DNA from: Deltaproteobacteria bacterium
GTDB taxonomy: Bacteria; Myxococcota_A; UBA9160; SMWR01
Direction of reading: 5' to 3'
Assembly (NCBI GenBank): GCA_032128375.1
Contig: JAQBGU010000187.1
Coordinates: forward strand, 1 to 26,139
DNA length: 26,139 nt
In this document: piece by piece, positions 3,337-19,956 of the stretch
Layout: every line of letters starts with the position of its first letter
How positions within the stretch are numbered: the stretch's first letter is position 1
The notes under the pieces: generated by a model
The model's database searches: none
The model's input: only the letters and a program-made list of their open reading frames with translations
Told to the model about the DNA's origin: nothing
Position numbers and translations under genes: made by a program

Positions 3337-3364
3337 TTGACAGTACATGACTTACAGTCATAAT
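3337..3364 (+). promoter_or_regulatory. Putative sigma70 promoter of the fatty-acid operon
   Basis: TTGACA (3337-3342), 16-bp spacer, CATAAT (3359-3364), about 185 bp upstream of the first gene. Confidence 0.7.
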
Positions 3365-3444
3365 CGTGGCCAGTCACCCTGTGACGGCTGTGACTGGAAC
3401 GGAACGGAAAGTGACTGGAAAGTCTAGAAAGTGACTGAAAGTCA
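3347..3444. promoter_or_regulatory. Array of putative TetR operators
   Basis: Perfect palindrome ATGACT-TAC-AGTCAT (3347-3361) overlapping the promoter spacer and -10. Second TGACT-GAA-AGTCA (3432-3444), variant TGACT-GGAA-AGTCT (3412-3425), and inverted repeat CCAGTCAC (3370-3377)/GTGACTGG (3390-3397). Confidence 0.65.
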
Positions 3445-3549: not shown

Positions 3550-4506
3550 GTGAATCAGGATTTCAGTCCCGGAAGCTGGGCCATCATCCTCGGGGGCTCG
3601 AGCGGTTTCGGCCTCGCCACGGCGCAGAAGTTGGCCGAGAGCGGTATGAGCGTTTGCATCGTACACCGCGACCGGCGAGGAGCCATGTCTCGAATCGAAC
3701 CCGACTTCGAGAAAATCCGGGGCAGCGGAACCACGCTGTTGACGTTCAACACCGATGCGTTGAACCCGCAAAAGCGCGACGAGATCCTCGACGAATTGAC
3801 CGCTGCGATGGGGGCTGAAGGGCGGGTCCGGGTACTGCTTCATTCTATTGCGTTCGGAAACCTGAAGTTGATCGTCCCCGAACCGTCCGCCGCCGGCACC
3901 CTCGCCGGCACCGCGGCAGGCTCGCTCGCAGATCGTCTCGGTATCGACCCAGAACAACTCTCCCGGGCGGCCGATGATTTGTTCGACAGCGGCAGCGACG
4001 CGTTGCACACGCTGGCCAGCCGGCCCGAGTACCCGAACCGCTACCTCGACGACGACGACCTTGGGCGCACGATCTACAGCATGGGGACGAGCATCCTGGG
4101 CTGGGCACAGGCACTGCTCGATCGCGCGATGTTCGCGGACGACGCGCGGATCTTCGGCTTGACGAGCGAAGGCAACGAAGTGGCTTGGAAGGGCTATGCG
4201 GCCGTCGCAGCAGCCAAGGTCGCCATGGAGTCGATTGCGCGATCCATGGCCGTGGAGCTGGCCCCTTATGGTATCCGTACCAACGTGATTCAGGCAGGAG
4301 TCACGGATACGGCGGCGATGCGTGCAATCCCGGGCAGCGCACAACTCAAGGCCCAAGCGCGCAGCCGCAATCCGTTCGGGCGGCTGACCACACCGCGAGA
4401 CGTCGCCAATGTGATCGATCTTCTTTCGCGACCGGAGGCCAACTGGATCAACGGCGAGGTCATTCGAGTGGATGGGGGCGAACACATCTCGGGGGTTTTG
4501 CGGTGA
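3550..4506 (+). CDS. SDR-family enoyl-ACP reductase (FabL/FabI-like)
   Basis: Rossmann motif ILGGSSGFG, the enoyl-reductase-type Y-x6-K motif (YAAVAAAK), IQAGVTDT, and C-terminal NPFGRLTTPRDVANV..WINGEVIRVDGG. Confidence 0.85.
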   Translation: MNQDFSPGSWAIILGGSSGFGLATAQKLAESGMSVCIVHRDRRGAMSRIEPDFEKIRGSGTTLLTFNTDALNPQKRDEILDELTAAMGAEGRVRVLLHSIAFGNLKLIVPEPSAAGTLAGTAAGSLADRLGIDPEQLSRAADDLFDSGSDALHTLASRPEYPNRYLDDDDLGRTIYSMGTSILGWAQALLDRAMFADDARIFGLTSEGNEVAWKGYAAVAAAKVAMESIARSMAVELAPYGIRTNVIQAGVTDTAAMRAIPGSAQLKAQARSRNPFGRLTTPRDVANVIDLLSRPEANWINGEVIRVDGGEHISGVLR

Positions 4507-5498
4507 CGGTGTTCTTGCACGGCCTGGGCCACTTCCATCCCAACAACGAGATCACCAACCAGTTTCTCGAAGATCTCGACATCGGCACCGACGATCAATG
4601 GATCATGGAGCGCGTGGGGATCCGCTCGCGGCGCACCGTGATGCCGCTGGACTACATTCGTGAGACCCAAAACGTGGAACCTCGGGCCGCAATGGACGCC
4701 GCCGAGTACACGAACGCGCAGATGGGTGCACGAGCGGCAGAACTTGCCATTTCGCGAGCCGGCATCGACAAGGGCCAGATCGGCATGGTCATCGGCGGCA
4801 CCTCCGCCGCCGACACCGCCACACCGGCCGAGGGCTGCAATGTCAGCCGCATACTCGAACTAGAGGTCCCGAGCTTCGATGTCATCTCGGCGTGCACCAG
4901 CTTCTACGTGCAGCTCTATCTGCTCTCGTTGATGCAGCCCGAGAAACTGCCGGACTACGTACTGCTCGTCGCGACGGACGGGCTCACCAAGACCGTCGAC
5001 TACAGAGATCGGGCAGCGGCCGTGCTGTGGGGTGACGGCGCCGCCGCCGCGGTGATCTCCACGCGCCACGAAAGCCGTGCCCGAATCCTCGGCAACACGC
5101 TCGACGGGAGCCCAGCAGGAAACGAAAAGGTTGTCGTCCCGCGCTTGGGTCACTTCCGTCAGGATGGCCGAACCATCCAGGTTTTCGGAATCAAACGCAT
5201 GACCCGAATACTCGCGAACCTGCAGGCCGAATTCGAGCAACCCGACCGCCACTTCAACTTTGTCGGACATCAAGCCAACAGACGGATGCTGGAGTCGGTT
5301 GTCAAGAGCCGCAACATCCCGAACGACAGGCACCACAGCAACGTCGAATGGTTTGGAAACACGGGATCTGCGAGTTCCGCTTCCGTGATCTCGATGCTGT
5401 GGGAGAAGTGGACCGATTCTGACGACGTGGCCGTCGTCGGCGTCGGCGCAGGCTTGGCGTGGTCGGGCTACCTGCTGCGGATTGGAGAGGATTCGTGA
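4503..5498 (+). CDS. fabH: Beta-ketoacyl-ACP synthase III (FabH-like)
   Basis: GTG at 4503 overlaps the upstream TGA (GTGA). Motifs TDDQWIMERVGIRSRR, catalytic Cys (SACTSF), LWGDGAAA, His (GHQAN), Asn (FGNTGSAS), GAGLAW. Confidence 0.9.
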   Translation: MTVFLHGLGHFHPNNEITNQFLEDLDIGTDDQWIMERVGIRSRRTVMPLDYIRETQNVEPRAAMDAAEYTNAQMGARAAELAISRAGIDKGQIGMVIGGTSAADTATPAEGCNVSRILELEVPSFDVISACTSFYVQLYLLSLMQPEKLPDYVLLVATDGLTKTVDYRDRAAAVLWGDGAAAAVISTRHESRARILGNTLDGSPAGNEKVVVPRLGHFRQDGRTIQVFGIKRMTRILANLQAEFEQPDRHFNFVGHQANRRMLESVVKSRNIPNDRHHSNVEWFGNTGSASSASVISMLWEKWTDSDDVAVVGVGAGLAWSGYLLRIGEDS

Positions 5499-6085
5499 AT
5501 TACCAGGAGTTCCAGCAGCAGAAGGCCTTCGACAAGGGCGAACTGCTCGCCTTTGCACATGGCAACCTGTTCGACGGCGCGCCGCCGGAATTCAAAGTGG
5601 AACTCCCGGCCCCTCCGATGCTGATGATCGACCGGATCGTCGACATCAGCCGCGACGGCGCTCGCGGCCGCATCGTTGCGGAACGCAATGTCTCCGTGGA
5701 CGACTGGTTCTTCGAGTGCCACTTCAGGGACGACCCGGTCCAGCCGGGCTGCCTCGGGGTAGACGGCGTCTGGCAGCTGTTGGGCTTCTATTGTGCGTGG
5801 CGCGGCGGTCTCGGTTCAGGACGGGCGCTCGGGTGTGGGGAGGTGGAATTCTCCGGGCAGATCCGGCCCCATGATCGCCTGGTTCGTTACGAGGTCGACA
5901 TACGTCGGTTCACGAAGATCGCCCATGCAGGCGCGTCGCTGGTGATCGGAGATGCACTGCTCTTCGTCGATGACGAGCTCATCTACGAAATCAAACGCGC
6001 GAAGGTGGGGACGTTTCAGGGAATCGATTATCCCGACTATCCGAAGGCTTCTGCGCGGTCGCGCGGTGGAAAAATGGAGCGATGA
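5495..6085 (+). CDS. fabA: 3-hydroxyacyl-ACP dehydratase/isomerase (FabA-type)
   Basis: GTG at 5495 (GTGA overlap). LPAPPMLMIDRI, WFFECHFRDDPVQPGCLGVDGVWQLLGFY (His/Asp dyad), GRALGCGEVEFSGQI. Confidence 0.92.
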   Translation: MNYQEFQQQKAFDKGELLAFAHGNLFDGAPPEFKVELPAPPMLMIDRIVDISRDGARGRIVAERNVSVDDWFFECHFRDDPVQPGCLGVDGVWQLLGFYCAWRGGLGSGRALGCGEVEFSGQIRPHDRLVRYEVDIRRFTKIAHAGASLVIGDALLFVDDELIYEIKRAKVGTFQGIDYPDYPKASARSRGGKMER

Positions 6086-6540
6086 GCGGAAGGCGCCTGA
6101 CACCCGATGAAGTCCTGGCGGCGCTGCCGCAGCAGGAGCCGTTTCGCTTCGTCGACGAAATCCTCGAGATCGATGAAGAACACATCATCGGCTCGTACCG
6201 GTTCCGGCCCGATGCCGATTTCTATCGCGGTCACTTCCCCGGAAATCCGGTCACACCGGGTGTGATCTTGATCGAGTCGATGGCGCAAGTAGGCATCGTG
6301 GCGCTCGGGCTCTACCTGTTGACGCTCGAGAGCGAGGCCGACATCGACACGATCACGACCCTGTTCACCGACACCAGCGTCGACTTCAATGGGATCGTCA
6401 AGCCGGGGGATCGGGTGACAATCTCTGCTAGAAAGACATTTTTCCGGCGTCGAAAGCTGCGAAGCGAAGCCGAGATGGCTCTCGACGATGGCACCGTCGT
6501 ATGCTCGGGAAGTGTTTCTGGCATGGGAGTATTCAGATGA
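6082..6540 (+). CDS. fabZ: 3-hydroxyacyl-ACP dehydratase (FabZ-like)
   Basis: LPQQEPFRFVD, FYRGHFPGNPVTPGVILIESMAQ (His/Glu dyad), VKPGD; ATGA overlap with fabA. Confidence 0.85.
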   Translation: MSGRRLTPDEVLAALPQQEPFRFVDEILEIDEEHIIGSYRFRPDADFYRGHFPGNPVTPGVILIESMAQVGIVALGLYLLTLESEADIDTITTLFTDTSVDFNGIVKPGDRVTISARKTFFRRRKLRSEAEMALDDGTVVCSGSVSGMGVFR

Positions 6541-7814
6541 GCAACCGCGTGGTGGTCACGGGCCTCGGGGTATTGGCAGCCAATGGCAACGGCATCCATG
6601 CCTTCGAGCTCGCACTCCGAAAGGGACACTCGGGTATTCGCCAGAACGAAAAGATGATCGAATGCGGCTTTGGCTCGCACGTCGCCGGCGTGCCTCAGGG
6701 AATCGACGAGATCGCCGAGTCCTATTTCGACGAAGACATGTTGCGAGCGATGAATTCGGGGCACCGATTTGCATCGATCGCGTCCGTCGACGCGTGGACC
6801 GACGCCGGCCTCGAGCGACCGGACCCGGCAGACGACACGGTCGATTGGGACACCGGAGCCATTCTCGGAACCGGGATCGGAGGCATGGACACGATCGCAG
6901 CCAAGGTCGTTCCACTGACGGACTCGAAGATGATTCGACGTCTTGGCAGCACCGCAGTCGAGCAGGTCATGGCCAGCGGCGTGTCAGCACGGCTGTCGGG
7001 GTTGTTTGCACTGGGCAACCAGGTGACGACCAACTCGAGCGCCTGCAGCACTGGAAGTGAAGCAATCTCGATGGGCTTCGAGCGGATTCGCAACGGTCTG
7101 GCGAAACGAATGCTCTGTGGTGGTGCCGAAGGCGCGAGCCACTACATCTGGGCGGGTTTCGACGCGATGCGTGTGTTGTGCCGCAAGTTCAACGATGAAC
7201 CCGAGCGGGCATCCCGACCGATGTCCGCATCAGCGGCAGGTTTCGTCCCGAGCGCGGGAGCCGGCGTGCTGATGCTGGAGAGTCTCGATAGCGCGCGAGA
7301 ACGCGGCGCGCGGATCTACTGTGAGATCGCCGGTTCCGCGGTCAACTGCGGTGGACATAGGGGGGGCGGAAGCATGACCGCACCCAATCCCGAGAGCGTG
7401 AAGCGGTGTATCAAGGCAGCATTGGCCGACGCGCAAACGCAACCGGAGGAAGTCGGCGCGATCAACGCGCATCTGACCGCGACCGGTGCAGACCCGAACG
7501 AAGTGCGCTCCTGGTCGGCGGCACTCGATTGCCGTCCACAGGATCTCCCCCCGATCACGTCGACGAAGTCGATGATCGGCCATGCACTTGGAGCCGCAGG
7601 CGGAATCGAATCGGTGGCCAGCGTTTTGATGCTCCGCGGCGGCTTCATCCATGCATCGATCAATTGCGGTGACGTGCATCCAGAAATCGAGCCCTACGCG
7701 GCGTCCATTCCGCACACGGCACGCGAACTTCCCGACCTCCAGGTGGTCATGAAGGCCGGCTTCGGTTTTGGGGACGTAAACGCGTGCGTCGTGTTCCGGA
7801 AGTGGAACGAGTAG
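6537..7814 (+). CDS. Beta-ketoacyl-ACP synthase I/II (FabB/FabF family)
   Basis: ATG at 6537 (ATGA overlap). RVVVTGLG, catalytic Cys (SSACSTG), His (INAHLTAT), His (TKSMIGHALGAAG), C-terminal GFGFGDVNA. Confidence 0.92.
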   Translation: MSNRVVVTGLGVLAANGNGIHAFELALRKGHSGIRQNEKMIECGFGSHVAGVPQGIDEIAESYFDEDMLRAMNSGHRFASIASVDAWTDAGLERPDPADDTVDWDTGAILGTGIGGMDTIAAKVVPLTDSKMIRRLGSTAVEQVMASGVSARLSGLFALGNQVTTNSSACSTGSEAISMGFERIRNGLAKRMLCGGAEGASHYIWAGFDAMRVLCRKFNDEPERASRPMSASAAGFVPSAGAGVLMLESLDSARERGARIYCEIAGSAVNCGGHRGGGSMTAPNPESVKRCIKAALADAQTQPEEVGAINAHLTATGADPNEVRSWSAALDCRPQDLPPITSTKSMIGHALGAAGGIESVASVLMLRGGFIHASINCGDVHPEIEPYAASIPHTARELPDLQVVMKAGFGFGDVNACVVFRKWNE

Positions 7815-7878
7815 CTCGACCAGCCCAATCGCCACCGGTAAATCAGACATCACACCAGATCACCAAAGGAGAAGTACA

Positions 7879-8127
7879 GTGGACCAGACGGAGATCTTCG
7901 AGAAAGTCATCAAGATTCTCACCCCTTACGTCAAGAACCAGGAAGCACTCGCCAAAGTCACGCCCGCTACGCACATCCTCGACGACCTGAAGGTGAATTC
8001 CGCTCGCCTCGTCGACGTTGTTCTCGAATTCGAAGACATCTTCGAGATCGAAATCGACGATGACGATGTCGACTCGGTAGAGACGGTGGGCAACGCAGTC
8101 GCGTTGATCGAGTCGAAGCTAGGCTAG
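7879..8127 (+). CDS. Acyl carrier protein
   Basis: 82 aa and highly acidic. DDLKVNSARLVDVVLEFEDIFEIEIDDDD matches ACP helix II with the Ser attachment site. RBS AAGGAG upstream. Confidence 0.92.
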   Translation: MDQTEIFEKVIKILTPYVKNQEALAKVTPATHILDDLKVNSARLVDVVLEFEDIFEIEIDDDDVDSVETVGNAVALIESKLG

Positions 8128-8891
8128 TGGCTTCGCGACCTTTCGCCCCCGTTCCGCCGCAGATGCGACGGAAACTGAAGGTTCAACGCGAGACAACGCG
8201 TCTGCTCTCGCCACTCACGCTCCCGCTGGTCGCACTCACCCTCCGATACGGGTTCGGATACCGAATCGAGGGGCTGACCGAGCTTCGCGCGGACTATCGC
8301 AGAGCCTCTCTCGAAAACGACGCCCCTATGATCATATGCGCAAATCATCTCACGCTGATCGATTCCTTCATCATCGCATGGGCACTGGGATCGCCATGGT
8401 GGTACATCCGGCAGTTTCGAACCCTTCCGTGGAACGTCCCCGAGCAATCGATCTTCGCCGCCACGCCCTGGCTTCGGAGCGCGATCTACATCATGAAGTG
8501 TCTTCCCATTCAGCGGGGCGGCGAGCGTCGGGGCGTCACTGAGGTGCTAGCGAAAATCGCCCACCTGATCTCGCAGGGCGAAACCGCGTTGATCTTCCCC
8601 GAAGCCGGCCGCAGCCGGTCCGGACGAATCGAGGTGGAATCGGCGGCAACTGGAGTGGGGCGAATTTTCAAGTCGGTGCCGAACTGTCGAGTGATTTGTG
8701 TGTACCTGCGTGCAGAGAGCCAAGAGTCGTATTCCAGCGCGCCACGCCGCGGGGATCGATTTCGGGGCTCGCTCGAAGTGATCGAGCCGAAGACTGACCA
8801 CCCAGGTGTCCGTGGATCGCGTGACATCGCGCATCAGATTCTCGTACGACTCGCAGACATGGAGCGTAGCTACTTCGATGCTCGGAAATGA
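8127..8891 (+). CDS. Lysophospholipid acyltransferase (PlsC family)
   Basis: HX4D motif NHLTLID, LPIQRG, IFPEAGRS; hydrophobic N-terminal segment; GTG shares one base with the ACP stop. Confidence 0.88.
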   Translation: MASRPFAPVPPQMRRKLKVQRETTRLLSPLTLPLVALTLRYGFGYRIEGLTELRADYRRASLENDAPMIICANHLTLIDSFIIAWALGSPWWYIRQFRTLPWNVPEQSIFAATPWLRSAIYIMKCLPIQRGGERRGVTEVLAKIAHLISQGETALIFPEAGRSRSGRIEVESAATGVGRIFKSVPNCRVICVYLRAESQESYSSAPRRGDRFRGSLEVIEPKTDHPGVRGSRDIAHQILVRLADMERSYFDARK

Positions 8892-9522
8892 CATCGTAGA
8901 CCTCGCAGACCCCGAGACGTCCCGTGGGGGCCAGCATCCGCGCTTCGACGAGCGGGTCTTTGCGAGCTGTGAACGTGCGGCGCTTGCCCGAAGTTCCGAC
9001 CCGACGCGTTTGCGCTGGATGCTGTGGGCAGTGAAGGAAAGCGCCTTCAAGGGGTTGCGCAGAACGCAGCCGGCGACGGTCCTATCGCCAGTTCAGTTCG
9101 TGGTCGACCTCGATTCCCAGCTACACGGGACAGTCAGCTGCCGAGACCAACACTACTGTGCAACCGTCGAATTGGATCGAGATTGCGTTCACGCGATCGT
9201 CTCCGATGATCTCGCGCGGGACGGCACGCTGTGGGGATCGCGACGGGTCGCGGACGGCACCGTCGCTGACATTGCAGCCAGTCAGCAGGCGCGCTCGCTG
9301 GCTCTGGACCGAATTTCCGCTCGGCTCGGAATCGATCGATCCGAGCTCGGTATCGAGCGCGTCGGGCGAATTCCGCAGCTGGTTCACCGCGGTGCATGCA
9401 CACCGTCGACACTCTCGCTTTCGCACCACGGATCGTACGTGAGTTTTGCCTGTCAGCTCGAGCCGTGGTGCGTGACAGCTGTCGATCGGCTGCCTCCCCG
9501 ATTGCAAACGGTCACTCGATAG
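8878..9522 (+). CDS. 4'-phosphopantetheinyl transferase
   Basis: ATG at 8878 gives MLGNDIVDL (GxD motif), WAVKESAFK (WxxKEA-like motif) and LSLSHHG. Confidence 0.88.
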   Translation: MLGNDIVDLADPETSRGGQHPRFDERVFASCERAALARSSDPTRLRWMLWAVKESAFKGLRRTQPATVLSPVQFVVDLDSQLHGTVSCRDQHYCATVELDRDCVHAIVSDDLARDGTLWGSRRVADGTVADIAASQQARSLALDRISARLGIDRSELGIERVGRIPQLVHRGACTPSTLSLSHHGSYVSFACQLEPWCVTAVDRLPPRLQTVTR

Positions 9523-9531
9523 GGAGACACA

Positions 9532-12500
9532 TTGAAAGAACAACTGATTCGTCGACTGGTGATCATCAATCGGGGCGAAGCCGCGATGCGCGCGATCCGC
9601 GCCGTCAAAGCGCTGCGAGCCTTGGAAGGCTCAAATCTCGAGAGTGTGGTCCTATACACCGACGTCGATCGAGAAGCTCCGTTTGTCCGCCATGCGGACC
9701 GCGCGATTCGGCTCGACTCCAGTCGGGGCCCTGTCGCAGCCTACCTCGACCGCGACCGATTGATGCAAGCATTGGTCGAGGCCGAGGCCGATGCGGTGTG
9801 GCCGGGATGGGGATTCGTCGCGGAAGACCCCGAATTTGCGGACCTGGTGGTCGCGAGCGGACTTCGTTTCCTGGGTCCATCCGGCGACGTGATGCGTGCA
9901 CTGGGCGACAAGATCGATGCGAAGCGCGTGGCCGAAAAAAGTGGCGTTCCAGTTCTCGCCTGGAGTGGTGCTGTCGTAACCGACCCTGCCGAAGCCGCAG
10001 CCGTCGCGGCGCGCATCGGCTACCCGGTGGTCATCAAGGCCGCTGCCGGCGGAGGTGGCCGCGGGATTCGGATGGTGGAATCAGAAGCAGATATCGAGAC
10101 CTCGTTCCGTTCCGCTGCTGCGGAGGCACGATCGGCGTTCGGCGACGACCGACTCTTTGTCGAACGCAGGCTACCCCGCGGCCGACACATCGAAGTCCAG
10201 TTTGCCGCCGACTCGCACGGAAACTCGATGTCGCTTGGGTGCCGCGATTGCTCGATCCAGCGCCGACACCAGAAAGTAGTCGAAGAGGCTCCACCACCCG
10301 GGCTACCCGGCGCGTTTCTGGCGCAGCTCGAAAGCGCGGCGATCGGACTGGTGACACAGGTGGGCTATGTCGGCGTGGGAACCGTCGAGTTCCTGGTATC
10401 AGCCGGAGAATTCTTCTTCCTCGAGGTCAATCCCCGCTTACAGGTCGAACACGGGATCACAGAGGAATTGACCGGGATCGATCTGGTACAGCTACAGATC
10501 CGGATCGCTCGCGGCGAGTCGCTGCCCCCTGCCCCGCAGCCAAGGGCACTGGTCGCGATCGAGGCGCGTGTGTGCGCCGAGGATCCGCAGGCCGACTTTC
10601 TTCCGACGCCGGGTCGGATCGCACTGTTCGATCCTGCGCTCGGACCTCGGATGCGAATCGACTCGGGTGTGGCGGCGGGTTCCCAGGTTCCGGCGGAGTT
10701 CGACTCCCTGATCGCCAAGTTGATTGCAGTAGGCGATTCCCGCGAGGACGCCCGCGCGCGACTCACCTGCGCGCTTACCGACTTCGAGTTGGTCGTCGCC
10801 GGCGGCGCCACCAACAAGGGCTACCTGATCGACATCCTGGAAGCGGATGAGTACCGGTCGGGCGATTACGACACGGAATGGCTCGATCGCTCGCCCGGTC
10901 TGCGCAGCGGCTCCGACGAGTTCGCCGTCGAAGCGCTGATCGTCGCATCGATCCTGTGTTATCAGCGATACCGCGACGGTGCACGCCAGAAATTCTACGC
11001 GGACCCGGCAACGCTCTCGCCGACATCCATCCCCGCATCCACGGGCCAACGTGTCGACCTGACTGCAGGATCAGAAAGCTACAGGCTGCAGGTCTTCGGA
11101 GTCGGAGCCTGGCGATATCGGGTACACATGGACGGGCACGTCGCGGTCGCGACGTTGCGCGACGAAAGGGCGAACTCCGCAATCCTCGAGCTTTCCGGTC
11201 GCAGCCTGCGAGTCGTCCACGACATCACGGAACAGGGTTTGCGCATCGAAGTCGAGTCGCGTCCGTACCGCTTCAGCAGCGAACTCGCTGGCCAGGTTCG
11301 TTCGAGCACTCCAGCCGTCGTGCTTTCGCTCCAGGTCAAGCCCAGAGATGTCGTATCCACTGGGCAATCACTCGGATTGCTGGAAGCGATGAAGACCGAG
11401 ATCGACTTCCGATCTCCCGTCAGCGGCGTCGTCAAGGAAATCCTGGTGCGAGCTGGTCAGCAGGTGGTCGCTGGCGAGTTGCTGCTGGTGATCGAGGCAG
11501 AGGCCAAAGGAACAGAGGAGGCGCCCCGCGAGCATCTCGAACTGCCGTCCTATAGCGACCCATTGGACATCTTCTTCAGACCTGCCGATGAATCTACCGA
11601 ACCGCCCGGGACCGAAAAGTTGACTGTCGTCGACTTGCTGGCGGCCGAACGAGCCGACACAGAATCAAGACGTCGCGCGATGGATGCTGCACGCGACGAA
11701 ATTCGTCGCGTACTGATGGGCTACGATGTCAACCCCCTGCGCGGCGAACGTCTGGTTTCGCTGTTGGAAGTTCCGCTTCCCGAGGGCCTGAGTGAGTCGT
11801 TCCGATGGGAACTGGCCGAGATTCGGCACGACCTGACGCTGTTTGCCGACATCGAAGAACTGTTCGTTCGCGCCCAGCACGCCTCGGTTTCGGGTGATCT
11901 CGGCCCGTCGAATCACGCACGGTTACGCGCCTATATGCGACGCATGGCGACCGGTGGTGCTGGAATCTCAGAGGAGTTCCTGACCATCCTACGCCATGCA
12001 CTATCCCACTACGGTGTCGACTTGCAACCCTGCGAGGCGTTGGAACGGGCCGTGCTGCGATTGGTCGCTACCCAGCTGGCCCCAAAATTGCGGCGACGTT
12101 TGGTGGCCGAAATCCTGCGGCGCATCCACGCGCTCGCCGTATCCGGACTCCATCTCGGCCACGACAGCGCACTAGCAGATGCTCTTTCGTCCATCGCCGG
12201 GCTGCGCGGTTTGGTTCCCGACGCGCTCGCCGACCACGCGATCGAAGCGAGCTACGCGATCTTCGAGCGCCCCGAACTCGAGCGGCAAGCCGAGCGCACC
12301 AGCAAAGAGGTGGAGAGCTGGCTGTCGCAAGCCGAGTCGGAACCTACACCGCCGCCCAATGCCGTATTGGTGCACCTCGCCAACGCGCCGCGTATCGTCT
12401 TCGATCGGGTCGGACACTGGATCGGTGACGCGAACCCGCTGCGTAGTGCGGTTGCCGTCGCAGCGCACGTGTGCCGCCTGTACGCGCCTGGCAGTGCCCC

Positions 12501-15150
12501 CACCCATACATCAGACATCATCGGTGCGGCGCACGTCGAGCGCCTCGATTTGAAGGACGGTCGAACCGTTTTGGGAAGCGTGGCACGTTCGGACCGCATC
12601 AGTCACGCCCTGGCGTTACTGGTGCGCGCCGCCGCAGCCGTGGGGGGTGTCGACGCGATCGAACTTCTGGTTCCCTCGGAACCGGACGAGGACCTGAGTC
12701 ACCTGCACAAAGTCCTGACTCCGGTTCTGACCTCTCTCGGCCGTTCGCTGTCGGCTGATCGGTTGACAGTCACGCGGTTGTGTAAGGAGGACCCGCCGGA
12801 ACACCTGAGCCTGATCGTGGCAGATTCGGGTTGGAAGGAAGCGACGGGATTGCATGGGCTGCATCCTGAAACCGCGGCGCGAATCGACCTCGAACGGTTG
12901 CAGGCGTTCCATCTCGAGAGGTTGGAATCGCCCGACGACATCTACTGTTTCCACCTGCGATCGAAGCAGATCCCTGGCGACGAGCGAATCTTCGTGCTGG
13001 CTGACTTCCGCGGACGCGCTCCCGATGATGGCCTCGAAGCGACGCTCCATATCCCGTCGTTCGAACGCGCGTTCTTCGAGGCGGCCCGAACGCTCCGAAG
13101 TCATCTCGGGATGCGGGATCCGAGTCGCCGGTTGCAGTGGAACCGGATCGCGGTATTCGCGTCGCCGACGATCTTCCTCGATGACGAAGTTGCCGAGCGT
13201 CTCGCAAGGCGTCTCGCGCCCGACACGCGACACCTCGGACTCGAGAAGGTCATCGTCCGGCTGAATGTCCTCGATCGTGCGAGCCCCGACGAGCGCGCTA
13301 GGCCCATCGAGGTCGTCATCGCTGACCCCACCGGGAGCAACATGGAGCTCTCGTGGCGCGGACCGCATCACGATGCTCTGGAGCCTGCCCGCGACTACGA
13401 ACGCAAGGTCGTCGACGCGAAGAGACGCAGACTGGTCTACCCCTATGAAATTATCAAACTCCTGACGGGCGGCTCCGGCGAAAACGGCGTAGCTCGCGGA
13501 GAAACCGATCCGGACCTCCCGCCCGGAAACTTCGAAGAGTTCGACCTGTGCCCGAAGAGCGAAGCCGGTCCTGTGGCGGTCAGCGTGGCGGGCCGAGCCT
13601 ACGGACTCAACGACTCATCGGTTGTCTTCGGCGTCATCGACACGCCGACCGAGAAGATCAGTGAGGGAATGAAACGAGTCTTGATCCTGTCCGATCCGAC
13701 CGTCGGTATGGGCGCACTCGCGGCACCGGAGTGCGATCGCATCGTCGCGGCGATCGATCTCGCACAAAGTCTCGGGGTTCCGCTCGAGTGGGTACCCGTA
13801 TCCAGCGGTGCACGAATCGCAATGGACAGCGGAACCGAGAACCTGGATGCGACCGCACGCGTCGTCCGCCGCATCGTCACATTCACCCAGGGTGATGGCA
13901 CGATTCACGTCATCGTCGCGGGTGTCAACATTGGCGCGCAGAGCTATTTCAATGCGCTTAGCACGATGCTGCCGCATACACATGGCGCTCTGATCATGAC
14001 ATCGGGTGCATCGATGCTATTGACCGGCCGCGCAGCGCTGGATGCATCCGGTTCGGTTTCCGCCGAAGATGAAGCGGCGATCGGGGGCTTCGAACGCATC
14101 ATGGGTCCCAACGGCGAAGCCCAGTACTTCGCGCGAAACATCGCCGACGCGTATCGGATCCTGTACGAACACTACCGCTACACGTATGTGACGCCCGGCG
14201 AATCGACGCCACGGCCGTTCCAGACCACTGACCCCGAGACACGCGCGATCACCGGTTTCGTCTGCGAGCCAGAAGAGGGACATGACTTCCACACGCTGGG
14301 GGAGATATTCGACCCGGCGACCAATCTCGATCGGAAACGCCCGTTCTCGATGCGCCTCGTGATGGAATCGCTCGTCGATCAAGACGGCGGTCACCTGGAG
14401 CGCTGGCGATCTTGGCAGGGTGCCGAGACCGCGATCGTGTGGGACGCGCACCTCGGTGGACACGCCATCTGTCTGATCGGCATCGAGAGCCGCAACCTCG
14501 ACCGCGAGGGTTACAGCCCAACCGATGGACCCGCAGTATGGACGGGTGGGACGTTGTTTCCGCTCTCCTCGAAGAAGCTCGCCCGCGCGCTGACTGCGGC
14601 TAGCGGGAACCGGCCGGTCGTGTTGCTTGCAAACTTATCCGGTTTCGACGGGTCGCCGGAATCCATGCGAAAGCTCCAGCTGGAATACGGAGCCCAGATC
14701 GCGCGAGCTGTCGTCAATTTCGAGGGGCCGCTGTTGTTCATGGTGGTATCGCGATACCACGGCGGCGCCTACGTGGTGTTTTCGGGTGCTCTCAATGATG
14801 GCTTGCGGCCCGCTGCACTGGCCGGATCGTTCGCATCGGTGATTGGTGGAACCCCCGCAGCCACGGTCGTGTTCGCGCGAGAGGTCCGTGCACGCGTCGG
14901 CTTCGATCCCCGCATCACCGCGCTTCGCCGCGCTACGGACTTCGAATCGCGCGAAAAATTCGACCGGGCCTGGCAGGAAGTCACATTGGAAAAACAGGTC
15001 GAGCTCGCCGCTCAGTTCGACAGCGTTCACACGGTAGAGCGTGCGCGAGAAGTCGGGTCGCTCAAAGCGATTGTTGATCCCGCGGATATGCGTCGTTATC
15101 TGATCGATGAACTGCGCGGGAGTCCGAGAAGCGGGAGATCCAGCGGATGA
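9532..15150 (+). CDS. Single-chain multidomain acyl-CoA carboxylase (BC-BCCP-central region-CT), eukaryotic ACC-like architecture
   Basis: BC domain: INRGEAAMR, PGWGFVAE, IKAAAGGGGRGIR, RDCSIQRRHQKVVEEAP, FLEVNPRLQVEH. Biotinyl domain: LLEAMKTE. Long central region. CT domain: SSGARI, LLANLSGFDG, HGGAYVV. TTG start with RBS AGGGAG. Confidence 0.93.
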   Translation: MKEQLIRRLVIINRGEAAMRAIRAVKALRALEGSNLESVVLYTDVDREAPFVRHADRAIRLDSSRGPVAAYLDRDRLMQALVEAEADAVWPGWGFVAEDPEFADLVVASGLRFLGPSGDVMRALGDKIDAKRVAEKSGVPVLAWSGAVVTDPAEAAAVAARIGYPVVIKAAAGGGGRGIRMVESEADIETSFRSAAAEARSAFGDDRLFVERRLPRGRHIEVQFAADSHGNSMSLGCRDCSIQRRHQKVVEEAPPPGLPGAFLAQLESAAIGLVTQVGYVGVGTVEFLVSAGEFFFLEVNPRLQVEHGITEELTGIDLVQLQIRIARGESLPPAPQPRALVAIEARVCAEDPQADFLPTPGRIALFDPALGPRMRIDSGVAAGSQVPAEFDSLIAKLIAVGDSREDARARLTCALTDFELVVAGGATNKGYLIDILEADEYRSGDYDTEWLDRSPGLRSGSDEFAVEALIVASILCYQRYRDGARQKFYADPATLSPTSIPASTGQRVDLTAGSESYRLQVFGVGAWRYRVHMDGHVAVATLRDERANSAILELSGRSLRVVHDITEQGLRIEVESRPYRFSSELAGQVRSSTPAVVLSLQVKPRDVVSTGQSLGLLEAMKTEIDFRSPVSGVVKEILVRAGQQVVAGELLLVIEAEAKGTEEAPREHLELPSYSDPLDIFFRPADESTEPPGTEKLTVVDLLAAERADTESRRRAMDAARDEIRRVLMGYDVNPLRGERLVSLLEVPLPEGLSESFRWELAEIRHDLTLFADIEELFVRAQHASVSGDLGPSNHARLRAYMRRMATGGAGISEEFLTILRHALSHYGVDLQPCEALERAVLRLVATQLAPKLRRRLVAEILRRIHALAVSGLHLGHDSALADALSSIAGLRGLVPDALADHAIEASYAIFERPELERQAERTSKEVESWLSQAESEPTPPPNAVLVHLANAPRIVFDRVGHWIGDANPLRSAVAVAAHVCRLYAPGSAPTHTSDIIGAAHVERLDLKDGRTVLGSVARSDRISHALALLVRAAAAVGGVDAIELLVPSEPDEDLSHLHKVLTPVLTSLGRSLSADRLTVTRLCKEDPPEHLSLIVADSGWKEATGLHGLHPETAARIDLERLQAFHLERLESPDDIYCFHLRSKQIPGDERIFVLADFRGRAPDDGLEATLHIPSFERAFFEAARTLRSHLGMRDPSRRLQWNRIAVFASPTIFLDDEVAERLARRLAPDTRHLGLEKVIVRLNVLDRASPDERARPIEVVIADPTGSNMELSWRGPHHDALEPARDYERKVVDAKRRRLVYPYEIIKLLTGGSGENGVARGETDPDLPPGNFEEFDLCPKSEAGPVAVSVAGRAYGLNDSSVVFGVIDTPTEKISEGMKRVLILSDPTVGMGALAAPECDRIVAAIDLAQSLGVPLEWVPVSSGARIAMDSGTENLDATARVVRRIVTFTQGDGTIHVIVAGVNIGAQSYFNALSTMLPHTHGALIMTSGASMLLTGRAALDASGSVSAEDEAAIGGFERIMGPNGEAQYFARNIADAYRILYEHYRYTYVTPGESTPRPFQTTDPETRAITGFVCEPEEGHDFHTLGEIFDPATNLDRKRPFSMRLVMESLVDQDGGHLERWRSWQGAETAIVWDAHLGGHAICLIGIESRNLDREGYSPTDGPAVWTGGTLFPLSSKKLARALTAASGNRPVVLLANLSGFDGSPESMRKLQLEYGAQIARAVVNFEGPLLFMVVSRYHGGAYVVFSGALNDGLRPAALAGSFASVIGGTPAATVVFAREVRARVGFDPRITALRRATDFESREKFDRAWQEVTLEKQVELAAQFDSVHTVERAREVGSLKAIVDPADMRRYLIDELRGSPRSGRSSG

Positions 15151-15818
15151 GCTCGCGAACGACAGAGCCAGGGTACGCGACTTCTCGGCCCCCTGGGCGC
15201 GCCAAGAAAAAGGCCGCCGTTCGCCGACGAATTCTGGAGAGCGCCAAAGGAGTCTTCTTCCGAGATGGCTTCATGGAAGCGAACCTCGATGAGGTCGCCG
15301 AACGAGCCGGCGTGGCGAAAGGAACCCTCTACCGATACTTCGAAAACAAAGCTCAGCTCTACGTCGCGGTGCTTTCGCACCGAGGTAAGGTGTTCGAGGA
15401 GAAACTCAAAGGGGCGCTGGATCCCGAGGCACCTCCGATCGAGGCGCTGTGGGACGCGAGCCGCTTCTACCTCCAGCACTATGTGACCAACCGCGAATAT
15501 TTCCAGATCTTCTGGGCCATCGAGAATCAGTCGGTGATTGGCGAGCTTCCATCGCAAGTTGTCGATGAAGTGACGCGACTGTGGGAGCAGAGTCTCGGTA
15601 CTTTGGCTGGGATCATCGACCGGGGCGTCGAAGAAGGAGTGTTCGCGCCCTGTGACGCCTGGGAAGTGGCCAGCATCCTATGGACGTTGGCGAACGCAGT
15701 CATCCGAACCGAGTCTTCTCCCGCACACCGCGGCTTGCGTCTACACAGCCTCGAATCGTTTTTCGAAGATGCAATCGGCTTGATGATCCGGGGAATGGCG
15801 GTACAGCGGCTGCCATAA
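15147..15818 (+). CDS. TetR/AcrR family transcriptional regulator
   Basis: HTH ILESAKGVFFRDGFMEANLDEVAERAGVAKGTLYRYFENKAQL; ATGA overlap with the carboxylase stop. Confidence 0.95.
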   Translation: MSSRTTEPGYATSRPPGRAKKKAAVRRRILESAKGVFFRDGFMEANLDEVAERAGVAKGTLYRYFENKAQLYVAVLSHRGKVFEEKLKGALDPEAPPIEALWDASRFYLQHYVTNREYFQIFWAIENQSVIGELPSQVVDEVTRLWEQSLGTLAGIIDRGVEEGVFAPCDAWEVASILWTLANAVIRTESSPAHRGLRLHSLESFFEDAIGLMIRGMAVQRLP

Positions 15819-15891
15819 CTGGCGCTGGCCTGATCGTTTCCCTTCGCTGGGTTGTCTTTAGGGTTATCGAGCGGTTGTCGCGGGCTGCTGG

Positions 15892-16599
15892 TCAGTCTGC
15901 GGGCTTCGCTGCCTCGGCTTCCAGAACGGCTATGGCGTCAGTCACCGCCTGCAACACCCGCGGCGGCGGGTTGGAATCTAACAACCGGCGAAGCGGTTCG
16001 ATTGCGACGGGATCCTCTTCGCTCGCGAGCGCCCGGACAATCTTGATCAGCAGTACAGTATCGGTGTGATTCAACAACCCGACGAAAGCAGGAACGGCGT
16101 CCTTTGCTGGGAATGAAGCGATCTGCTGGATGGCCCAGCCGCGCAGTTCTGGCGGATTGCCTTTCCGAACGATTCTGGTCAGCACACTGAGGTCCTCAGG
16201 CAGACTCGCGACGTCGATGCCCTGGAGCCTCGCGATTTCGGCCACCAGTTCTTTCAGGGCTTCCGGGTCTATTTTGGGCCTTCGGCCATAGCCGCGTTTG
16301 CGGGATCTGGCAGCACCGGAATCCTTCGCGAAGATGACCTCGTCATTGAGACGAACCCAGGGCCCGTCCGCTTCGAGCCCGCGCTTCCAGATCGCACCAC
16401 TCGACGAGTCGACCTTGAGCAGCAGCGGCTCGCGAATGTCTGTCAGAATTCGAAAATCGAAGCGTCCCAATTCGGCGGTCATCTCGCTGCCTCGTCGATT
16501 CAACCCTTCGAAAGGGAAGACCAGGCGCTGAATCAACAGCAGCAAGGTCAGTAGAAGCACGAGGCCAAGCAGCAGACGGTCCATGGAATCGAGTTTCAC
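15892..16599 (-). CDS. Membrane-anchored protein with a small beta domain and C-terminal HEAT repeats
   Basis: N-terminal hydrophobic helix (LLLGLVLLLTLLLLIQ). HEAT-like repeats ELRGWAIQQIASFPAKDAVPAFVGLL and IVRALASEEDPVAIEPLRRLL. The N-terminal domain resembles ORF 17770-18090. Confidence 0.75.
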   Translation of the reverse strand: MKLDSMDRLLLGLVLLLTLLLLIQRLVFPFEGLNRRGSEMTAELGRFDFRILTDIREPLLLKVDSSSGAIWKRGLEADGPWVRLNDEVIFAKDSGAARSRKRGYGRRPKIDPEALKELVAEIARLQGIDVASLPEDLSVLTRIVRKGNPPELRGWAIQQIASFPAKDAVPAFVGLLNHTDTVLLIKIVRALASEEDPVAIEPLRRLLDSNPPPRVLQAVTDAIAVLEAEAAKPAD

Positions 16600-16632
16600 A
16601 TTCTCTCAATGGGAAAGTTGCAGTTCCACTCG

Positions 16633-16663
16633 CAACAAACGCCTCGGACGAACGTCCGAGGCG
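16633..16663 (-). terminator. Intrinsic terminator after PEP-CTERM gene 2
   Basis: Perfect inverted repeat CGCCTCGGACG (16640-16650)/CGTCCGAGGCG (16653-16663), followed on the minus strand by TTTGTTG. Confidence 0.8.
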
Positions 16664-16694
16664 CTCAACGCTACTGCAAATTTGCCAGAGCCGC

Positions 16695-17315
16695 TCAGCT
16701 GCGTCGGCGAGCCAGGATCGATAGGCCCACGAGTCCGAGGCCGAGAAGGGCAACGGTACCTGGCTCCGGAACGATATTCACGACCGCCGACTGGAACGTC
16801 GTGCTGCCAGAAATCGAGCTGCCCGCAAGGTCGAGAATATCATCGATTCCCGTCATCGTGGATGAGAGCGTGAACTGGCCTGCGTCGCCGGCAGTCGTCA
16901 CGAACGTCACAGTCCCAATCAACCAACTCTGGCCACTCGTCAGCCCCGTTCTGACAAACGGTGGAAATACCTCGGCGGTGAGATTCTGGACGCGCCTACC
17001 GGTGTCGATCGTGTTGCCAAGAACCAGCGGCAACATCGCACTCGGCGATGGCATGTTCGGGTTGTTCGTGATTCCCACCACCGATAGCGCGGACCGTGCG
17101 ACGCCGTAGTCGACCGTAATGCCTGCCCTCCGCGCCCCCTCAGGGCCGGCGGTCAGGACGATATTCAGCGTAACGCTGCTCGAAGCGGCTACGGTCGTGT
17201 GGGATGTTCCGCTGTTTGCCCAGAGCAAGCCGACCGTTGCACTTGCGTGCGAACTACCCGCGATTCCGAGAGTCACGGCAAGGCTCGCGAGGATACCCAT
17301 CAACGAACCGCGCAT
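16695..17315 (-). CDS. PEP-CTERM exosortase substrate with a cohesin-like beta-sandwich domain (paralog 2)
   Basis: Signal peptide MRGSLMGILASLAVTLGIAGSSHA; C-terminal VPEPGTVALLGLGLVGLSILARRRS. Start at 17315 chosen from the GGAG RBS spacing and alignment with the paralog. The cohesin-like call is inference. Confidence 0.9.
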   Translation of the reverse strand: MRGSLMGILASLAVTLGIAGSSHASATVGLLWANSGTSHTTVAASSSVTLNIVLTAGPEGARRAGITVDYGVARSALSVVGITNNPNMPSPSAMLPLVLGNTIDTGRRVQNLTAEVFPPFVRTGLTSGQSWLIGTVTFVTTAGDAGQFTLSSTMTGIDDILDLAGSSISGSTTFQSAVVNIVPEPGTVALLGLGLVGLSILARRRS

Positions 17316-18407: not shown

Positions 18408-19019
18408 TTAGTTCTTGCGGCGGGCTGCGAAGGCCAGACCACCCAGGCCGAGTGCCAACAACGAAACCGTTCCGGGCTCCGGAACGTTGGTCAGCGAAGC
18501 CCCATTGAGAATGGGTACACTGGTCCCTCCGGACGCTACAACTAGCCCATCGGTTGCGGTAATGGCCGATGTGATGTTGAACGTGCCAAACGGTCCCGGT
18601 CCTTCCTTGTGGAACGTAACCGTACCGAGCAGGTAAGTGGCGCCGATGCCGAGACCGGTACCAACGAACGGAATCAATGCCCCGGCATTGATGTTTCGAA
18701 TCTGCGTGCCCGTATCGGTTACCACACCGAGTGCGAGACCCAATGCATTCCCAGTACCCACGATGTTCTTGAAGGTGACGACAGTCAGCTTGCCTATGGC
18801 ATCGCTGTAGTCGACCGTTACGCCGCCGCCCAACGACAGCTCGTTTTCGCCGTTCCTGAGTCTGACGTGCAGTACGAGGTTAGACGACGTCGATACCGAG
18901 GTGAGGGACGTCGAAACGCCGCCCCACAACAGGTCGATCGTTTGTGCTGCATTTGCGGTAGCCGCAAAGCCGACCAAGGCTACGAGACTACCCAGAGTTC
19001 CTACCAACAAAGTCCGCAT
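18408..19019 (-). CDS. PEP-CTERM exosortase substrate with a cohesin-like beta-sandwich domain (paralog 1)
   Basis: ATG at 19019 with RBS GAGGAG; signal peptide MRTLLVGTLGSLVALVGFAATANA; C-terminal VPEPGTVSLLALGLGGLAFAARRKN. The cohesin-like call is inference. Confidence 0.92.
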   Translation of the reverse strand: MRTLLVGTLGSLVALVGFAATANAAQTIDLLWGGVSTSLTSVSTSSNLVLHVRLRNGENELSLGGGVTVDYSDAIGKLTVVTFKNIVGTGNALGLALGVVTDTGTQIRNINAGALIPFVGTGLGIGATYLLGTVTFHKEGPGPFGTFNITSAITATDGLVVASGGTSVPILNGASLTNVPEPGTVSLLALGLGGLAFAARRKN

Positions 19020-19118
19020 TTTTTGCTTCTCCTCGATTGCGCTGAGTTCTTCAGTGCAAAATTTTCCATTCAGCTGATTTACAGTGGTACAACTTTCATG
19101 ATTCATGATGTGAAACAA

Positions 19119-19511
19119 CTACGGGCAGGCCGTGGTCCCAACCGTCGTCCCGGAAGGACCAGGAGTGCCACCGAAGGAGGCAACGAAGACGCCGAAGTCG
19201 GGGAATCCCGGCGGACCCGTGACGGGCTCTGTGTGATCACACAGAATATTCGCAGGGTTGCCGAACGCCGCGACGAACTGACCGAAGTCGGGGAATCCGA
19301 TGATACCGTCTTGGGTATAGTCTGCGTCACAAACGTTTCCGCAATGGTCGCCGTCCGTGTCGACTTGGCCCGGGTTTGCTTTATCACTGCAGTTGTCGCT
19401 GCAGTCATCAATTGTGTCGGAGTCAGAGTCGCCACAAATTGTTCCGGCGAATGCCGGCGATACTCCAAAAATCAGCAACGCCAGGGTCGCTGTAAGTGCC
19501 ATCAACTTCAT
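19119..19511 (-). CDS. Small secreted protein with thrombospondin type-3-like Ca-binding repeats and a dockerin-like duplicated motif
   Basis: RBS GAGGAG; signal peptide ending in AFA. DSDSDTIDDCSDNC..NPGQVDTDGDHCGNVCD is TSP3-like. Duplicated GFPDFGxFVAxFG, the first copy preceded by the Ca-loop-like DYTQDGII. Confidence 0.85.
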   Translation of the reverse strand: MKLMALTATLALLIFGVSPAFAGTICGDSDSDTIDDCSDNCSDKANPGQVDTDGDHCGNVCDADYTQDGIIGFPDFGQFVAAFGNPANILCDHTEPVTGPPGFPDFGVFVASFGGTPGPSGTTVGTTACP

Positions 19512-19940: not shown

Positions 19941-19956
19941 TGCAATCCTTATGCCA
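19941..19956 (-). promoter_or_regulatory. Sigma54 (RpoN) -24/-12 promoter
   Basis: Minus strand TGGCATAAGGATTGCA has exact GG-N10-GC spacing and is near consensus TGGCAC-N5-TTGCA. It lies upstream of the dockerin-like/PEP-CTERM genes, and PEP-CTERM genes are commonly sigma54-driven. Confidence 0.8.

Follow-up and report, generated by a model that had tools for sequence, protein, structure and literature searches.

A Single-Chain Carboxylase Gene in a Fatty Acid Synthesis Operon

We analyzed contig JAQBGU010000187.1 (26,139 nt, forward strand; the whole stretch is called the window below) of the Deltaproteobacteria bacterium assembly GCA_032128375.1, a metagenome-assembled genome (MAG) of the Myxococcota (GTDB lineage Myxococcota_A; UBA9160; SMWR01), and concentrated on one of its genes, which is predicted to encode a single-chain, biotin-dependent acetyl-CoA carboxylase (ACC). 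The gene is a single uninterrupted open reading frame on the forward strand, running from a TTG codon at 9532 to a stop codon at 15148-15150 (1872 aa); a Shine-Dalgarno-like motif (GGGAGA) lies 5 nt 5′ of the TTG, and the preceding gene ends 10 nt before it. It is the last enzyme gene of a ten-gene operon that contains a set of same-strand genes for type II fatty acid synthesis (FAS II; Table 1), the setting that an earlier note on this DNA, made from the sequence alone, had described.

The same note had read a biotin carboxylase (BC), a biotinyl domain (biotin carboxyl carrier protein, BCCP), a long central region, and a carboxyltransferase (CT) in this one chain, and Pfam searches and PDB alignments bear this out (domain boundaries are given in Table 1). 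BC, BCCP, central region, and CT follow one another in the order of the eukaryote-type multidomain ACCs. A BT domain is placed between BC and BCCP, since residues 5-653 align in one unbroken stretch with the alpha chains of methylcrotonyl-CoA carboxylase (MCC; 3u9s_A, residues 7-649) and propionyl-CoA carboxylase (PCC). From the end of the BCCP it is ∼640 aa to LVYPYE (about residue 1301), where homology to CT begins, and Pfam Carboxyl_trans (PF01039) is found at residues 1378-1861 (E = 2.7e-32).

The biotin lysine (K621) lies in an (A/V)MK motif, here EAMKT in place of the usual EAMKM, a substitution already remarked on in the note. When the window protein is compared with 56 full-length relatives, EAMKM is found in 48 of the 57 sequences, EAMKT in four (the window, L028, L037, and L089), and other motifs in five. 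The lysine itself is invariant in both the 17- and the 57-sequence comparisons; the family keeps the NPRLQVEH block and further BC residues unchanged, and sets of 17 and 31 homologues show no variation at K621, in the catalytic block of BC, or in the motifs of CT. Two other identities were considered and rejected: a pyruvate or urea carboxylase (the C-terminus is Carboxyl_trans, and NCBIfam models of such enzymes match no more than the BC part, residues 4-459, and score far below their cut-offs), and a component of heteromeric AccABCD (the CT is one fused domain).

Relationship of the Carboxyltransferase and Central Domains to Eukaryotic ACC

Searched alone against the PDB, the window CT matched the CTs of multidomain ACCs first (5i6g, E = 8.4e-14; yeast-type constructs, ∼1e-10), and the first chain named PCC beta came only at 1.7e-08. 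The PDB search returned molecule names only; we take 5csl, 6g2d, and 5i6e-5i6i to be chains of eukaryotic multidomain ACCs (yeast Acc1, human ACC1/2, and Chaetomium thermophilum ACC). A profile built from 31 CTs gave 44 matches, and the top 20 (chains of 737-2407 residues; E from 7.6e-27 to 1.2e-19) are all named acetyl-CoA carboxylase (1 or 2); the best non-ACC chain is an acyl-CoA carboxylase beta subunit at 4.7e-12, with PccB, MCC-beta, and 12S chains at 1e-08 or weaker. All the window CT motifs quoted in the earlier note are present in the translation, and HMMER aligns SSGARI, LANLSGFDGS, and YHGGAYVV with NSGARLG, LANWRGFSGG, and RGGSWVV of 5i6g; the motif TYVYDF, which the note had given for eukaryotic ACC, was not seen in any search output. 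These comparisons assign the window CT to the class in which the CTs of eukaryotic ACC also fall (“group V”; Livieri, 2019) and not to the PccB, AccA/AccD, or urea carboxylase class; a grouping with PccB or urea carboxylase types, which the note had named as telling against its reading, was not observed.

For the central region, sequences were excised from the 56 full-length loci of species genomes by way of a full-length MAFFT alignment, and the window sequence was aligned with 30 diverse ones among them. The profile of this alignment had 12 PDB matches at E ≤ 1, of which 11 are acetyl-CoA carboxylase chains covering the central domain (the best being 5i6e at 2.1e-16, 5i6h at 3.6e-16, and 5csa at 4.6e-16, down to 5i6f at 5.7e-07), and the twelfth is an unrelated chain at 0.33. 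The span aligned to the eukaryotic chains comprises profile positions 170-607 of 696. Scanned singly, 24 of the 31 aligned members contain PF08326 (ACC_central; E ≤ 0.01, best E = 5.7e-26), and a precomputed PF08326 match is given for ∼40 of 120 relatives listed (counted by eye). In the ESM Atlas, the top match of residues 660-1370 was an “ACC central region” cluster (64% Eukaryota) with a score of 0.76, which is below 0.9 and is taken as a lead only. By sequence profile, the window central region is thus homologous to the central domain of eukaryotic ACC, in agreement with the architecture first proposed for this gene. Shortened central regions also occur in the family, at L040:11960-13573 (538 aa) and L052:11948-13384 (479 aa); both were among the sequences left out of the profile.

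A bacterial enzyme of this kind has been characterized. According to the available text of Livieri (2019; PMC6491548), SACE_4237 of Saccharopolyspora erythraea is a homodimeric multidomain ACC of ∼200 kDa with end-to-end homology to eukaryotic ACC, central region included; it is essential, it acts on acetyl- and propionyl-CoA about equally well, and in this class of enzymes the CT sets substrate specificity. The premise of the earlier note that characterized bacterial single-chain carboxylases lack a large central domain is therefore out of date, because SACE_4237, which has one, was characterized in 2019. We compared the window ACC by BLASTP with a relative from Acidimicrobiia (P0286), and found 41% identity over residues 6 to ∼660 and 48% over residues 1098-1854; in the central region, the N-terminal half was left unaligned. 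Through P0286, not by direct comparison with SACE_4237, the window ACC is taken as belonging to the SACE_4237 family. Enzymes of this type have been on record from bacteria since 2019 and are frequent among uncultured ones, and the window ACC is a further member.

Distribution of the Single-Chain ACC and AccA in Myxococcota

The window genome (6.2 Mb in 249 contigs, 91% complete) was searched with TIGR00513 and TIGR00515 for accABCD components encoded elsewhere, a check that the earlier note had suggested, and neither AccA (best match 37.5 bits, cut-off 319) nor AccD (52 bits, cut-off 317) was found. Other carboxylase genes are present: a PccB-like beta subunit paired with a BC-bearing alpha subunit on contig C181 (the alpha subunit scores 625.6, above the cut-off of 597 for the “ACC biotin carboxylase” subfamily), a frame of pyruvate carboxylase size on C111 (1178 aa, only the BC matched), an alpha subunit of the MCC or geranyl-CoA carboxylase (GCC) type adjoining AtuA on C102, several lone beta subunits, and, on C173 (L102:1010-4447, reverse strand), a second single-chain carboxylase of 1145 aa with BC, BCCP, and CT and no central domain.

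In a sample of 121 genomes of the phylum (single-chain ACC recognized by its central domain at E ≤ 1e-10, AccA at E ≤ 1e-30), 46 genomes contain a single-chain ACC, 38 contain AccA, only three contain both (G044, G110, and G120), and 40 contain neither; no AccA was found in 43 of the 46 genomes with a single-chain ACC. The two are complementary within the mixed families: in family f28, five genomes have AccA only and two have the single-chain ACC only; in family f10, seven have AccA only, one has the single-chain ACC only, and one has both. In G044, one of the three genomes with both, accA is upstream of the single-chain ACC gene, at a distance of only a few hundred bases and in the same orientation (contig C29:2213-7659).

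The order of the window genome was sampled with 41 genomes, 36 of which carry the single-chain ACC. The operon ketosynthase is found in 23 of the 41, all of which also have the ACC, in 18 cases ∼5 kb downstream of the ketosynthase on the same contig; the remaining 13 of the 36 ACC-bearing genomes are without the operon ketosynthase. Nine genomes of the order have the ACC and no C181-type beta orthologue at E ≤ 1e-100. No AccA was found in eight of these nine (G008, G057, G068, G078, G088, G093, G098, and G113), nor in the sampled genomes of the family of the ninth (G133, f1). At one locus (L030:3244-14154), the ACC is kept in the same helicase-to-M24-peptidase context as in its nearest relatives L035 and L041, with just two short-chain dehydrogenase/reductase (SDR) genes upstream of it, the genes from FabH to the 4′-phosphopantetheinyl transferase (PPTase) being missing; AccA was not found in the genome concerned (G145).

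We find two main arrangements among the 56 full-length related loci: 16 have the FAS II set of the window operon upstream of the ACC gene (in 15 of these, the PPTase gene immediately precedes it), and 27 have a PfaA-like ketosynthase upstream and a PPTase directly downstream. Twelve loci have neither arrangement, and at L078 the upstream DNA is too short to assign. The PfaA-linked loci (L057-L093; e.g., L061:850-16305) encode a PfaA-like protein of ∼3000 aa with the domain order KS-AT-ACPn-KR-DH and form a mostly acidobacterial clade.

Proposed Role as the Main Source of Malonyl-CoA

Taken together, it is likely that the gene encodes a biotin-dependent, eukaryote-type single-chain acetyl-CoA carboxylase which, in this Myxococcota order, stands in for the absent AccABCD as the main source of malonyl-CoA and is not reserved for the operon. 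The activity, substrate range, dimeric state, and regulation that we attribute to the window ACC are predictions. From the domain plan and what is known of the class, BC would carboxylate the biotin on K621 with ATP and bicarbonate, the BCCP arm would swing the biotin to the CT active site, and CT would transfer CO2 to acetyl-CoA to give malonyl-CoA, with the central domain serving as a non-catalytic scaffold that positions BC and CT; the enzyme may also carboxylate propionyl-CoA. The distribution suggests that its product would feed both FAS II lines, the housekeeping one and that of the operon. In this order, then, the enzyme would most likely be the cell's ACC, as in S. erythraea, co-transcribed with a second FAS II line; in the PfaA-linked, mostly acidobacterial clade, we read the same family as an extra, synthase-linked enzyme.

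Several results weigh against this role or against the likeness to eukaryotic ACC. The window central region searched alone (677 aa) had no PDB match at E ≤ 10, and the window protein scores 18.7 bits against PF08326 (21.8 bits for the excised region), below the cut-off of 23.2, so that the case for its central-domain homology is carried by the family profile; the PF08326 check suggested in the earlier note thus came out positive for most family members and short of the cut-off for the window sequence by itself. A profile of 30 BC sequences (L067, with a short BC segment, was dropped) matched bacterial and mitochondrial-type BC chains at 1e-145 to 1e-117, and its 60 best PDB matches include no multidomain ACC chain; the window BC is therefore not specially eukaryote-like. 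At the genome level, the C181 pair could be the housekeeping ACC, given that something else must serve in the 40 phylum-sample genomes that have no AccA and no single-chain ACC. AccA is present above the cut-off in all six genomes tested from the PfaA-linked clade, most of which have acidobacterial record titles. Finally, the compared genomes are related and not independent, and absence from a MAG is not proof of absence.

The earlier note had instead proposed a supply dedicated to the operon; in such an arrangement, the ACC would make malonyl-CoA only for the accessory FAS II product, with housekeeping malonyl-CoA coming from the two-subunit carboxylase of C181. Such a division of labor would suit the translational coupling of the ACC gene into the operon, the linkage of the two in 16 of the 56 loci and in 18 of the 23 ketosynthase-bearing genomes of the order, and the presence of the C181 pair in the window genome, and in the 27 loci where a PfaA-like synthase and a PPTase flank it, with AccA alongside in six of six genomes tested, the family does act like a dedicated enzyme. 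The operon linkage is to be read as one inherited arrangement, since related genomes share genes by descent. The nine ACC-bearing genomes without a detected C181-type beta subunit, the 13 without the operon ketosynthase, the retention of the ACC at L030 without the FAS II genes, and its complementarity with AccA in f10 and f28 all speak for a more general role. We therefore regard a dedicated supply as rather unlikely, because within this phylum the ACC is nearly confined to genomes in which AccA was not found, and it is kept where the operon genes are missing.

Improbable, in our view, is a different substrate, by which the enzyme would act mainly on propionyl-, butyryl-, or longer acyl-CoA and provide alkylmalonyl extenders for a branched lipid. 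The part of the protein from BC through BCCP does align best with MCC-alpha and PCC-alpha, and SACE_4237 takes propionyl-CoA about as well as acetyl-CoA (in the available text of PMC6491548), but the CT, the part said there to set specificity, is closest to the CTs of acetyl-CoA carboxylases. The ketosynthase, FabA, and FabZ of the operon are of the ordinary type that extends with malonyl-ACP, and malonyl-CoA must still come from some enzyme, given that neither AccA nor AccD was found. That the gene is an assembly chimera, or is decaying and functionless, we consider very improbable: apart from the source being a MAG contig, nothing was found in its favor, and against it stand the 1872 uninterrupted codons, the invariant catalytic and biotin residues, and the 58-75% identity of the window ACC over its full length to many homologues of the same length from independent contigs. 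Three DNA sequencing runs from one study hold 91-94% of the sampled words of the stretch, although these may be the window's own source and are not counted as independent support; among the 10 runs listed with the stretch none is RNA, which says nothing about expression.

The Accessory FAS II Operon and Its Upstream Region

The operon comprises ten forward-strand genes (3550-15818) whose ends overlap or nearly abut (Table 1), and these overlaps, together with the Shine-Dalgarno motifs, fit a translationally coupled unit. The reductase encoded by the first gene has an insertion of ∼90 residues between its N-terminal Rossmann part and its catalytic part, and matches Pfam adh_short_C2 and the PDB chains in two stretches. 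Neither FabD nor FabG is encoded within 3550-15818. A housekeeping fabD-acpP-fabF cluster is located on contig C14, all three genes scoring above the curated cut-offs, and no close paralogues of the operon genes were found elsewhere in the genome; for these two reasons, we read the operon as an accessory, divergent second FAS II set.

Table 1. Features of the ACC gene, its protein domains, and the surrounding operon in the window.
Feature	Position	Strand	Evidence
Single-chain acetyl/acyl-CoA carboxylase (predicted), 1872 aa, BC-BT-BCCP-central domain-CT	9532..15150	+	Pfam, PDB searches, family profiles
Biotin carboxylase domain, residues 6-452	9547..10887	+	Pfam Biotin_carb_N, CPSase_L_D2, Biotin_carb_C
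Biotinyl (BCCP) domain, residues 594-654	11311..11493	+	Pfam Biotin_lipoyl; K621 at 11392-11394 in EAMKT
Central domain, residues 656-1289	11497..13398	+	Family profile vs. PDB; PF08326 in 24/31 members
Carboxyltransferase domain, residues 1290-1872, multidomain-ACC class	13399..15147	+	Pfam, PDB searches (sequence and profile)
FabL/FabI-like SDR, probable enoyl-ACP reductase	3550..4506	+	FabL NCBIfam 120 bits (cut-off 328); best PDB 3oic, 1ulu (enoyl-ACP reductases); GTG start, GGAG upstream
FabH-like ketoacyl-ACP synthase III	4503..5498	+	Pfam ACP_syn_III and C-terminal domain; NF006829 186 bits (cut-off 249); GTG 4503 overlaps previous stop
FabA, 3-hydroxydecanoyl-ACP dehydratase/isomerase type	5495..6085	+	NF003509 209.8 bits, above cut-off 124; GTG 5495, GGAGAGG upstream
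FabZ-like dehydratase	6082..6540	+	Pfam FabA-like domain; FabZ models 78-80 bits, below cut-offs; ATGA overlap with fabA
Divergent ketoacyl-ACP synthase I/II	6537..7814	+	TIGR03150 (FabF) 294.8 bits (cut-off 493.75); 32% identity to housekeeping FabF, contig C14
Second, divergent acyl carrier protein (ACP)	7879..8127	+	TIGR00517 41-42 bits (cut-off 70.45); housekeeping acpP on C14, 109 bits
PlsC-type (lysophospholipid) acyltransferase	8127..8891	+	Pfam Acyltransferase PF01553; weak TIGR00530 match
4′-Phosphopantetheinyl transferase (PPTase)	8878..9522	+	Pfam ACPS; candidate start ATG 8878
TetR-family regulator	15147..15818	+	Pfam TetR_N; weak FasR/FadR-type NCBIfam matches, all below cut-offs; ATG overlaps ACC stop (ATGA)
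Sigma-70-like promoter TTGACA-16 nt-CATAAT, upstream of first operon gene	3337..3364	+	11/12 positions match
Palindrome TGACTTACAGTCA, candidate operator overlapping -10 hexamer	3348..3360	.	Exact TGACT-N3-AGTCA
Second palindrome TGACTGAAAGTCA	3432..3444	.	Exact TGACT-N3-AGTCA

The operons of some relatives contain an extra ordinary SDR gene (e.g., L035:2833-3645; in L027, L029, and L047 it lies between fabA and fabZ). A large open reading frame upstream of the operon in relatives was considered as a further member and rejected, since in the 10 loci where Pfam matched it is an unrelated DinG-like exonuclease-helicase.

The promoter-like element is the sole such match in 3100-16700; shuffled sequences have a mean of 2.5 matches, so the count alone is not significant, and it is the position that fits. 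The two palindromes listed in Table 1 are the only exact TGACT-N3-AGTCA sites in the window, and at least two such sites anywhere in the window were found in 7 of 100 shuffles. Across 1.4 Mb of related loci there are seven exact copies of the palindrome, each of them just upstream of the first operon gene (L024:3887, L031:3784, L039:3809, L041:3804, L043:2607, L045:2369, and L047:3821). When up to one mismatch is allowed, 11 of the 15 operon-bearing sequences have a copy no more than 450 nt upstream of the first operon gene, and only two matches fall elsewhere in these sequences. We propose TGACT-N3-AGTCA as a conserved candidate operator of the operon. A TetR gene is found downstream of the ACC gene in L024, after an ACC fragment in the truncated L025, and divergently upstream in L028, and was not found in the other loci; TetR was therefore rejected as a general partner of the palindrome, being present only in the window and these three loci vs. 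11 of 15 for the palindrome.

Combining these elements, we tentatively suggest, as a possibility that the odds do not favor, that the eukaryote-type ACC is the sole supplier of malonyl-CoA in this order of uncultured Myxococcota from marine sediment, having wholly taken the place of AccABCD. It would then share one transcription unit, under the conserved TGACT-N3-AGTCA operator, with a second FabA/FabB-type FAS II line whose product would be an unsaturated acyl chain on the operon's own ACP, passed by the PlsC-type acyltransferase directly to a lysophospholipid. If this is true, total malonyl-CoA output and a specialized membrane lipid would be co-regulated.

Outside the operon, a gene for a 734-aa sulfatase fused to TPR repeats (956-3160, reverse strand) is divergent from it, and a sulfatase gene is found upstream of the operon in L028 as well. 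The window also contains a gene for a PEP-CTERM protein beside one for an exosortase (EpsH)-DUF3485 fusion (18408-21647), and the segment 19001-20000 has a G+C fraction of 0.52, compared to ∼0.61 elsewhere.

Breadth of the Family and Relation to Eukaryotic ACC

At least 611 matching stretches were found in species-representative genomes, and among clusters formed at 50% identity the central region has 725 matches at E ≤ 1e-3, or 445 when the threshold is tightened to E ≤ 1e-10, the longest member among the best 150 of these clusters having at most 1905 aa. Record titles and source names of family members include Myxococcota, Acidobacteriota (Terriglobales, Holophaga, and Blastocatellia), Ktedonobacteraceae (Chloroflexota), Acidimicrobiia, Planctomycetota, Binatia, and Verrucomicrobiia; within Acidobacteriota, the central domain was found in 3 of 101 sampled genomes. 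The available text of the SACE_4237 report gives orthologues for actinobacterial families only (Livieri, 2019; PMC6491548), and no description of the Myxococcota form was found in the literature that we searched (multidomain or homomeric bacterial ACC, SACE_4237, and fabA with fabB in Myxococcota). The family also includes forms of ∼1240-1370 aa without BC, with the order BCCP-CD-CT or CD-CT, where CD is the central domain (P0048, P0017, and P0026); since the contig that encodes P0048 is 102 kb long, the family may include a split-gene form. A 4539-aa open frame in G135 was rejected as an ACC fusion, since the 2140 in-frame residues upstream contain no Pfam domain, as in a chance frame of a GC-rich genome.

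A tree of the CTs with 64 rows (quick search with IQ-TREE, LG+G4, SH-aLRT support only, midpoint root) places the window ACC in a clade of 19 rows with SH-aLRT support of 95. All 17 operon-linked rows belong to this clade, as do L030 and L052; on the opposite side are the rows from Acidimicrobiia, Ktedonobacteraceae, Planctomycetota, and acidobacteria. Four loci titled Spirochaetales or Spirochaetaceae (L030, L036, L037, and L039) have ACCs that nest among those of Myxococcota in this tree, three of the four with the same operon, and the labels look doubtful.

A search for longer proteins with a central-plus-CT profile had only one hit among 3043 candidates, a 2318-aa bacterial variant, and returned no eukaryotic sequence. 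As an indirect measure of likeness to eukaryotes, we scored 15 central regions against PF08326, a model that we take to be built largely from eukaryotic ACCs. The eight members on the window side of the tree scored 0-29.5 bits, compared to 46-85 bits for six of the seven on the other side (L056 scored 25.1). The window clade thus has the more divergent central domain, and these lower scores do not favor it as the nearest relative of eukaryotic ACC among bacteria; unequal rates, however, could make such a comparison misleading. The suggestion that this lineage bears on the origin of eukaryotic ACC therefore holds for the family as a whole and not for the window clade in particular.

As a single gene, the window ACC is an ordinary member of a widespread family. 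The central domain, long treated as a hallmark of eukaryotic ACC, is common in bacteria well beyond Actinobacteria, which gives a wider choice of bacterial candidates for a relative of eukaryotic ACC; given this breadth, that relative need not be actinobacterial. The family seems to be used in two ways, in Myxococcota mostly where AccABCD was not found, and in the acidobacterial clade beside a PfaA-like synthase in genomes that have AccA. Its members may also be offered as compact one-gene malonyl-CoA modules for metabolic engineering.

Comparison with Known Carboxylase Systems

The window ACC would catalyze the same overall reaction as AccABCD, which differs in having four subunits, a CT split between AccA and AccD, and no central domain. 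Like the carboxylases of long-chain acyl-CoA (LCC), it contains all the catalytic parts in one polypeptide; LCC, however, is reported to be a hexameric enzyme of ∼120 kDa without a central domain, with another domain order and a CT of another group, and an LCC-type identity was rejected for the window ACC, which has 1872 aa, a central domain of ∼640 aa, and an ACC-class CT.

A gene of the same family has been placed in a lipid cluster before. In the available text of Shulse and Allen (2011; PMC3098273), an ACC gene of “Koribacter versatilis” lies between pfaA and pfaE homologues in a Type R secondary lipid cluster, an arrangement that we see in 27 of the 56 loci. In both the Koribacter-type cluster and the window, the enzyme stands beside a dedicated lipid synthase and a PPTase; the Koribacter-type loci have a type I PfaA-like synthase of ∼3000 aa, the PPTase downstream, and AccA in the genome (six of six), whereas the window has a type II set, the PPTase upstream, and no AccA found.

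With eukaryotic ACC the window protein shares the BC-BT-BCCP-CD-CT order, a central domain and CT of detectable homology, and common CT motifs. It is shorter (1872 aa vs. ∼2200-2400 aa), its BC shows no greater closeness to the BC of eukaryotic ACC than to those of bacteria, and no evidence of the eukaryotic regulatory features was found in it.

The closest likeness among characterized bacterial enzymes is to SACE_4237. Both are single chains of ∼200 kDa with BC, BCCP, central region, and CT, both have a CT that groups with those of eukaryotic ACCs, and in both cases the multi-subunit ACC is missing and has probably been replaced. The window clade lies opposite the Acidimicrobiia representative in the CT tree and its central domain is further from PF08326; in addition, unlike SACE_4237, the window ACC comes from a MAG of a different phylum, Myxococcota, and its gene lies inside an accessory FAS II operon.

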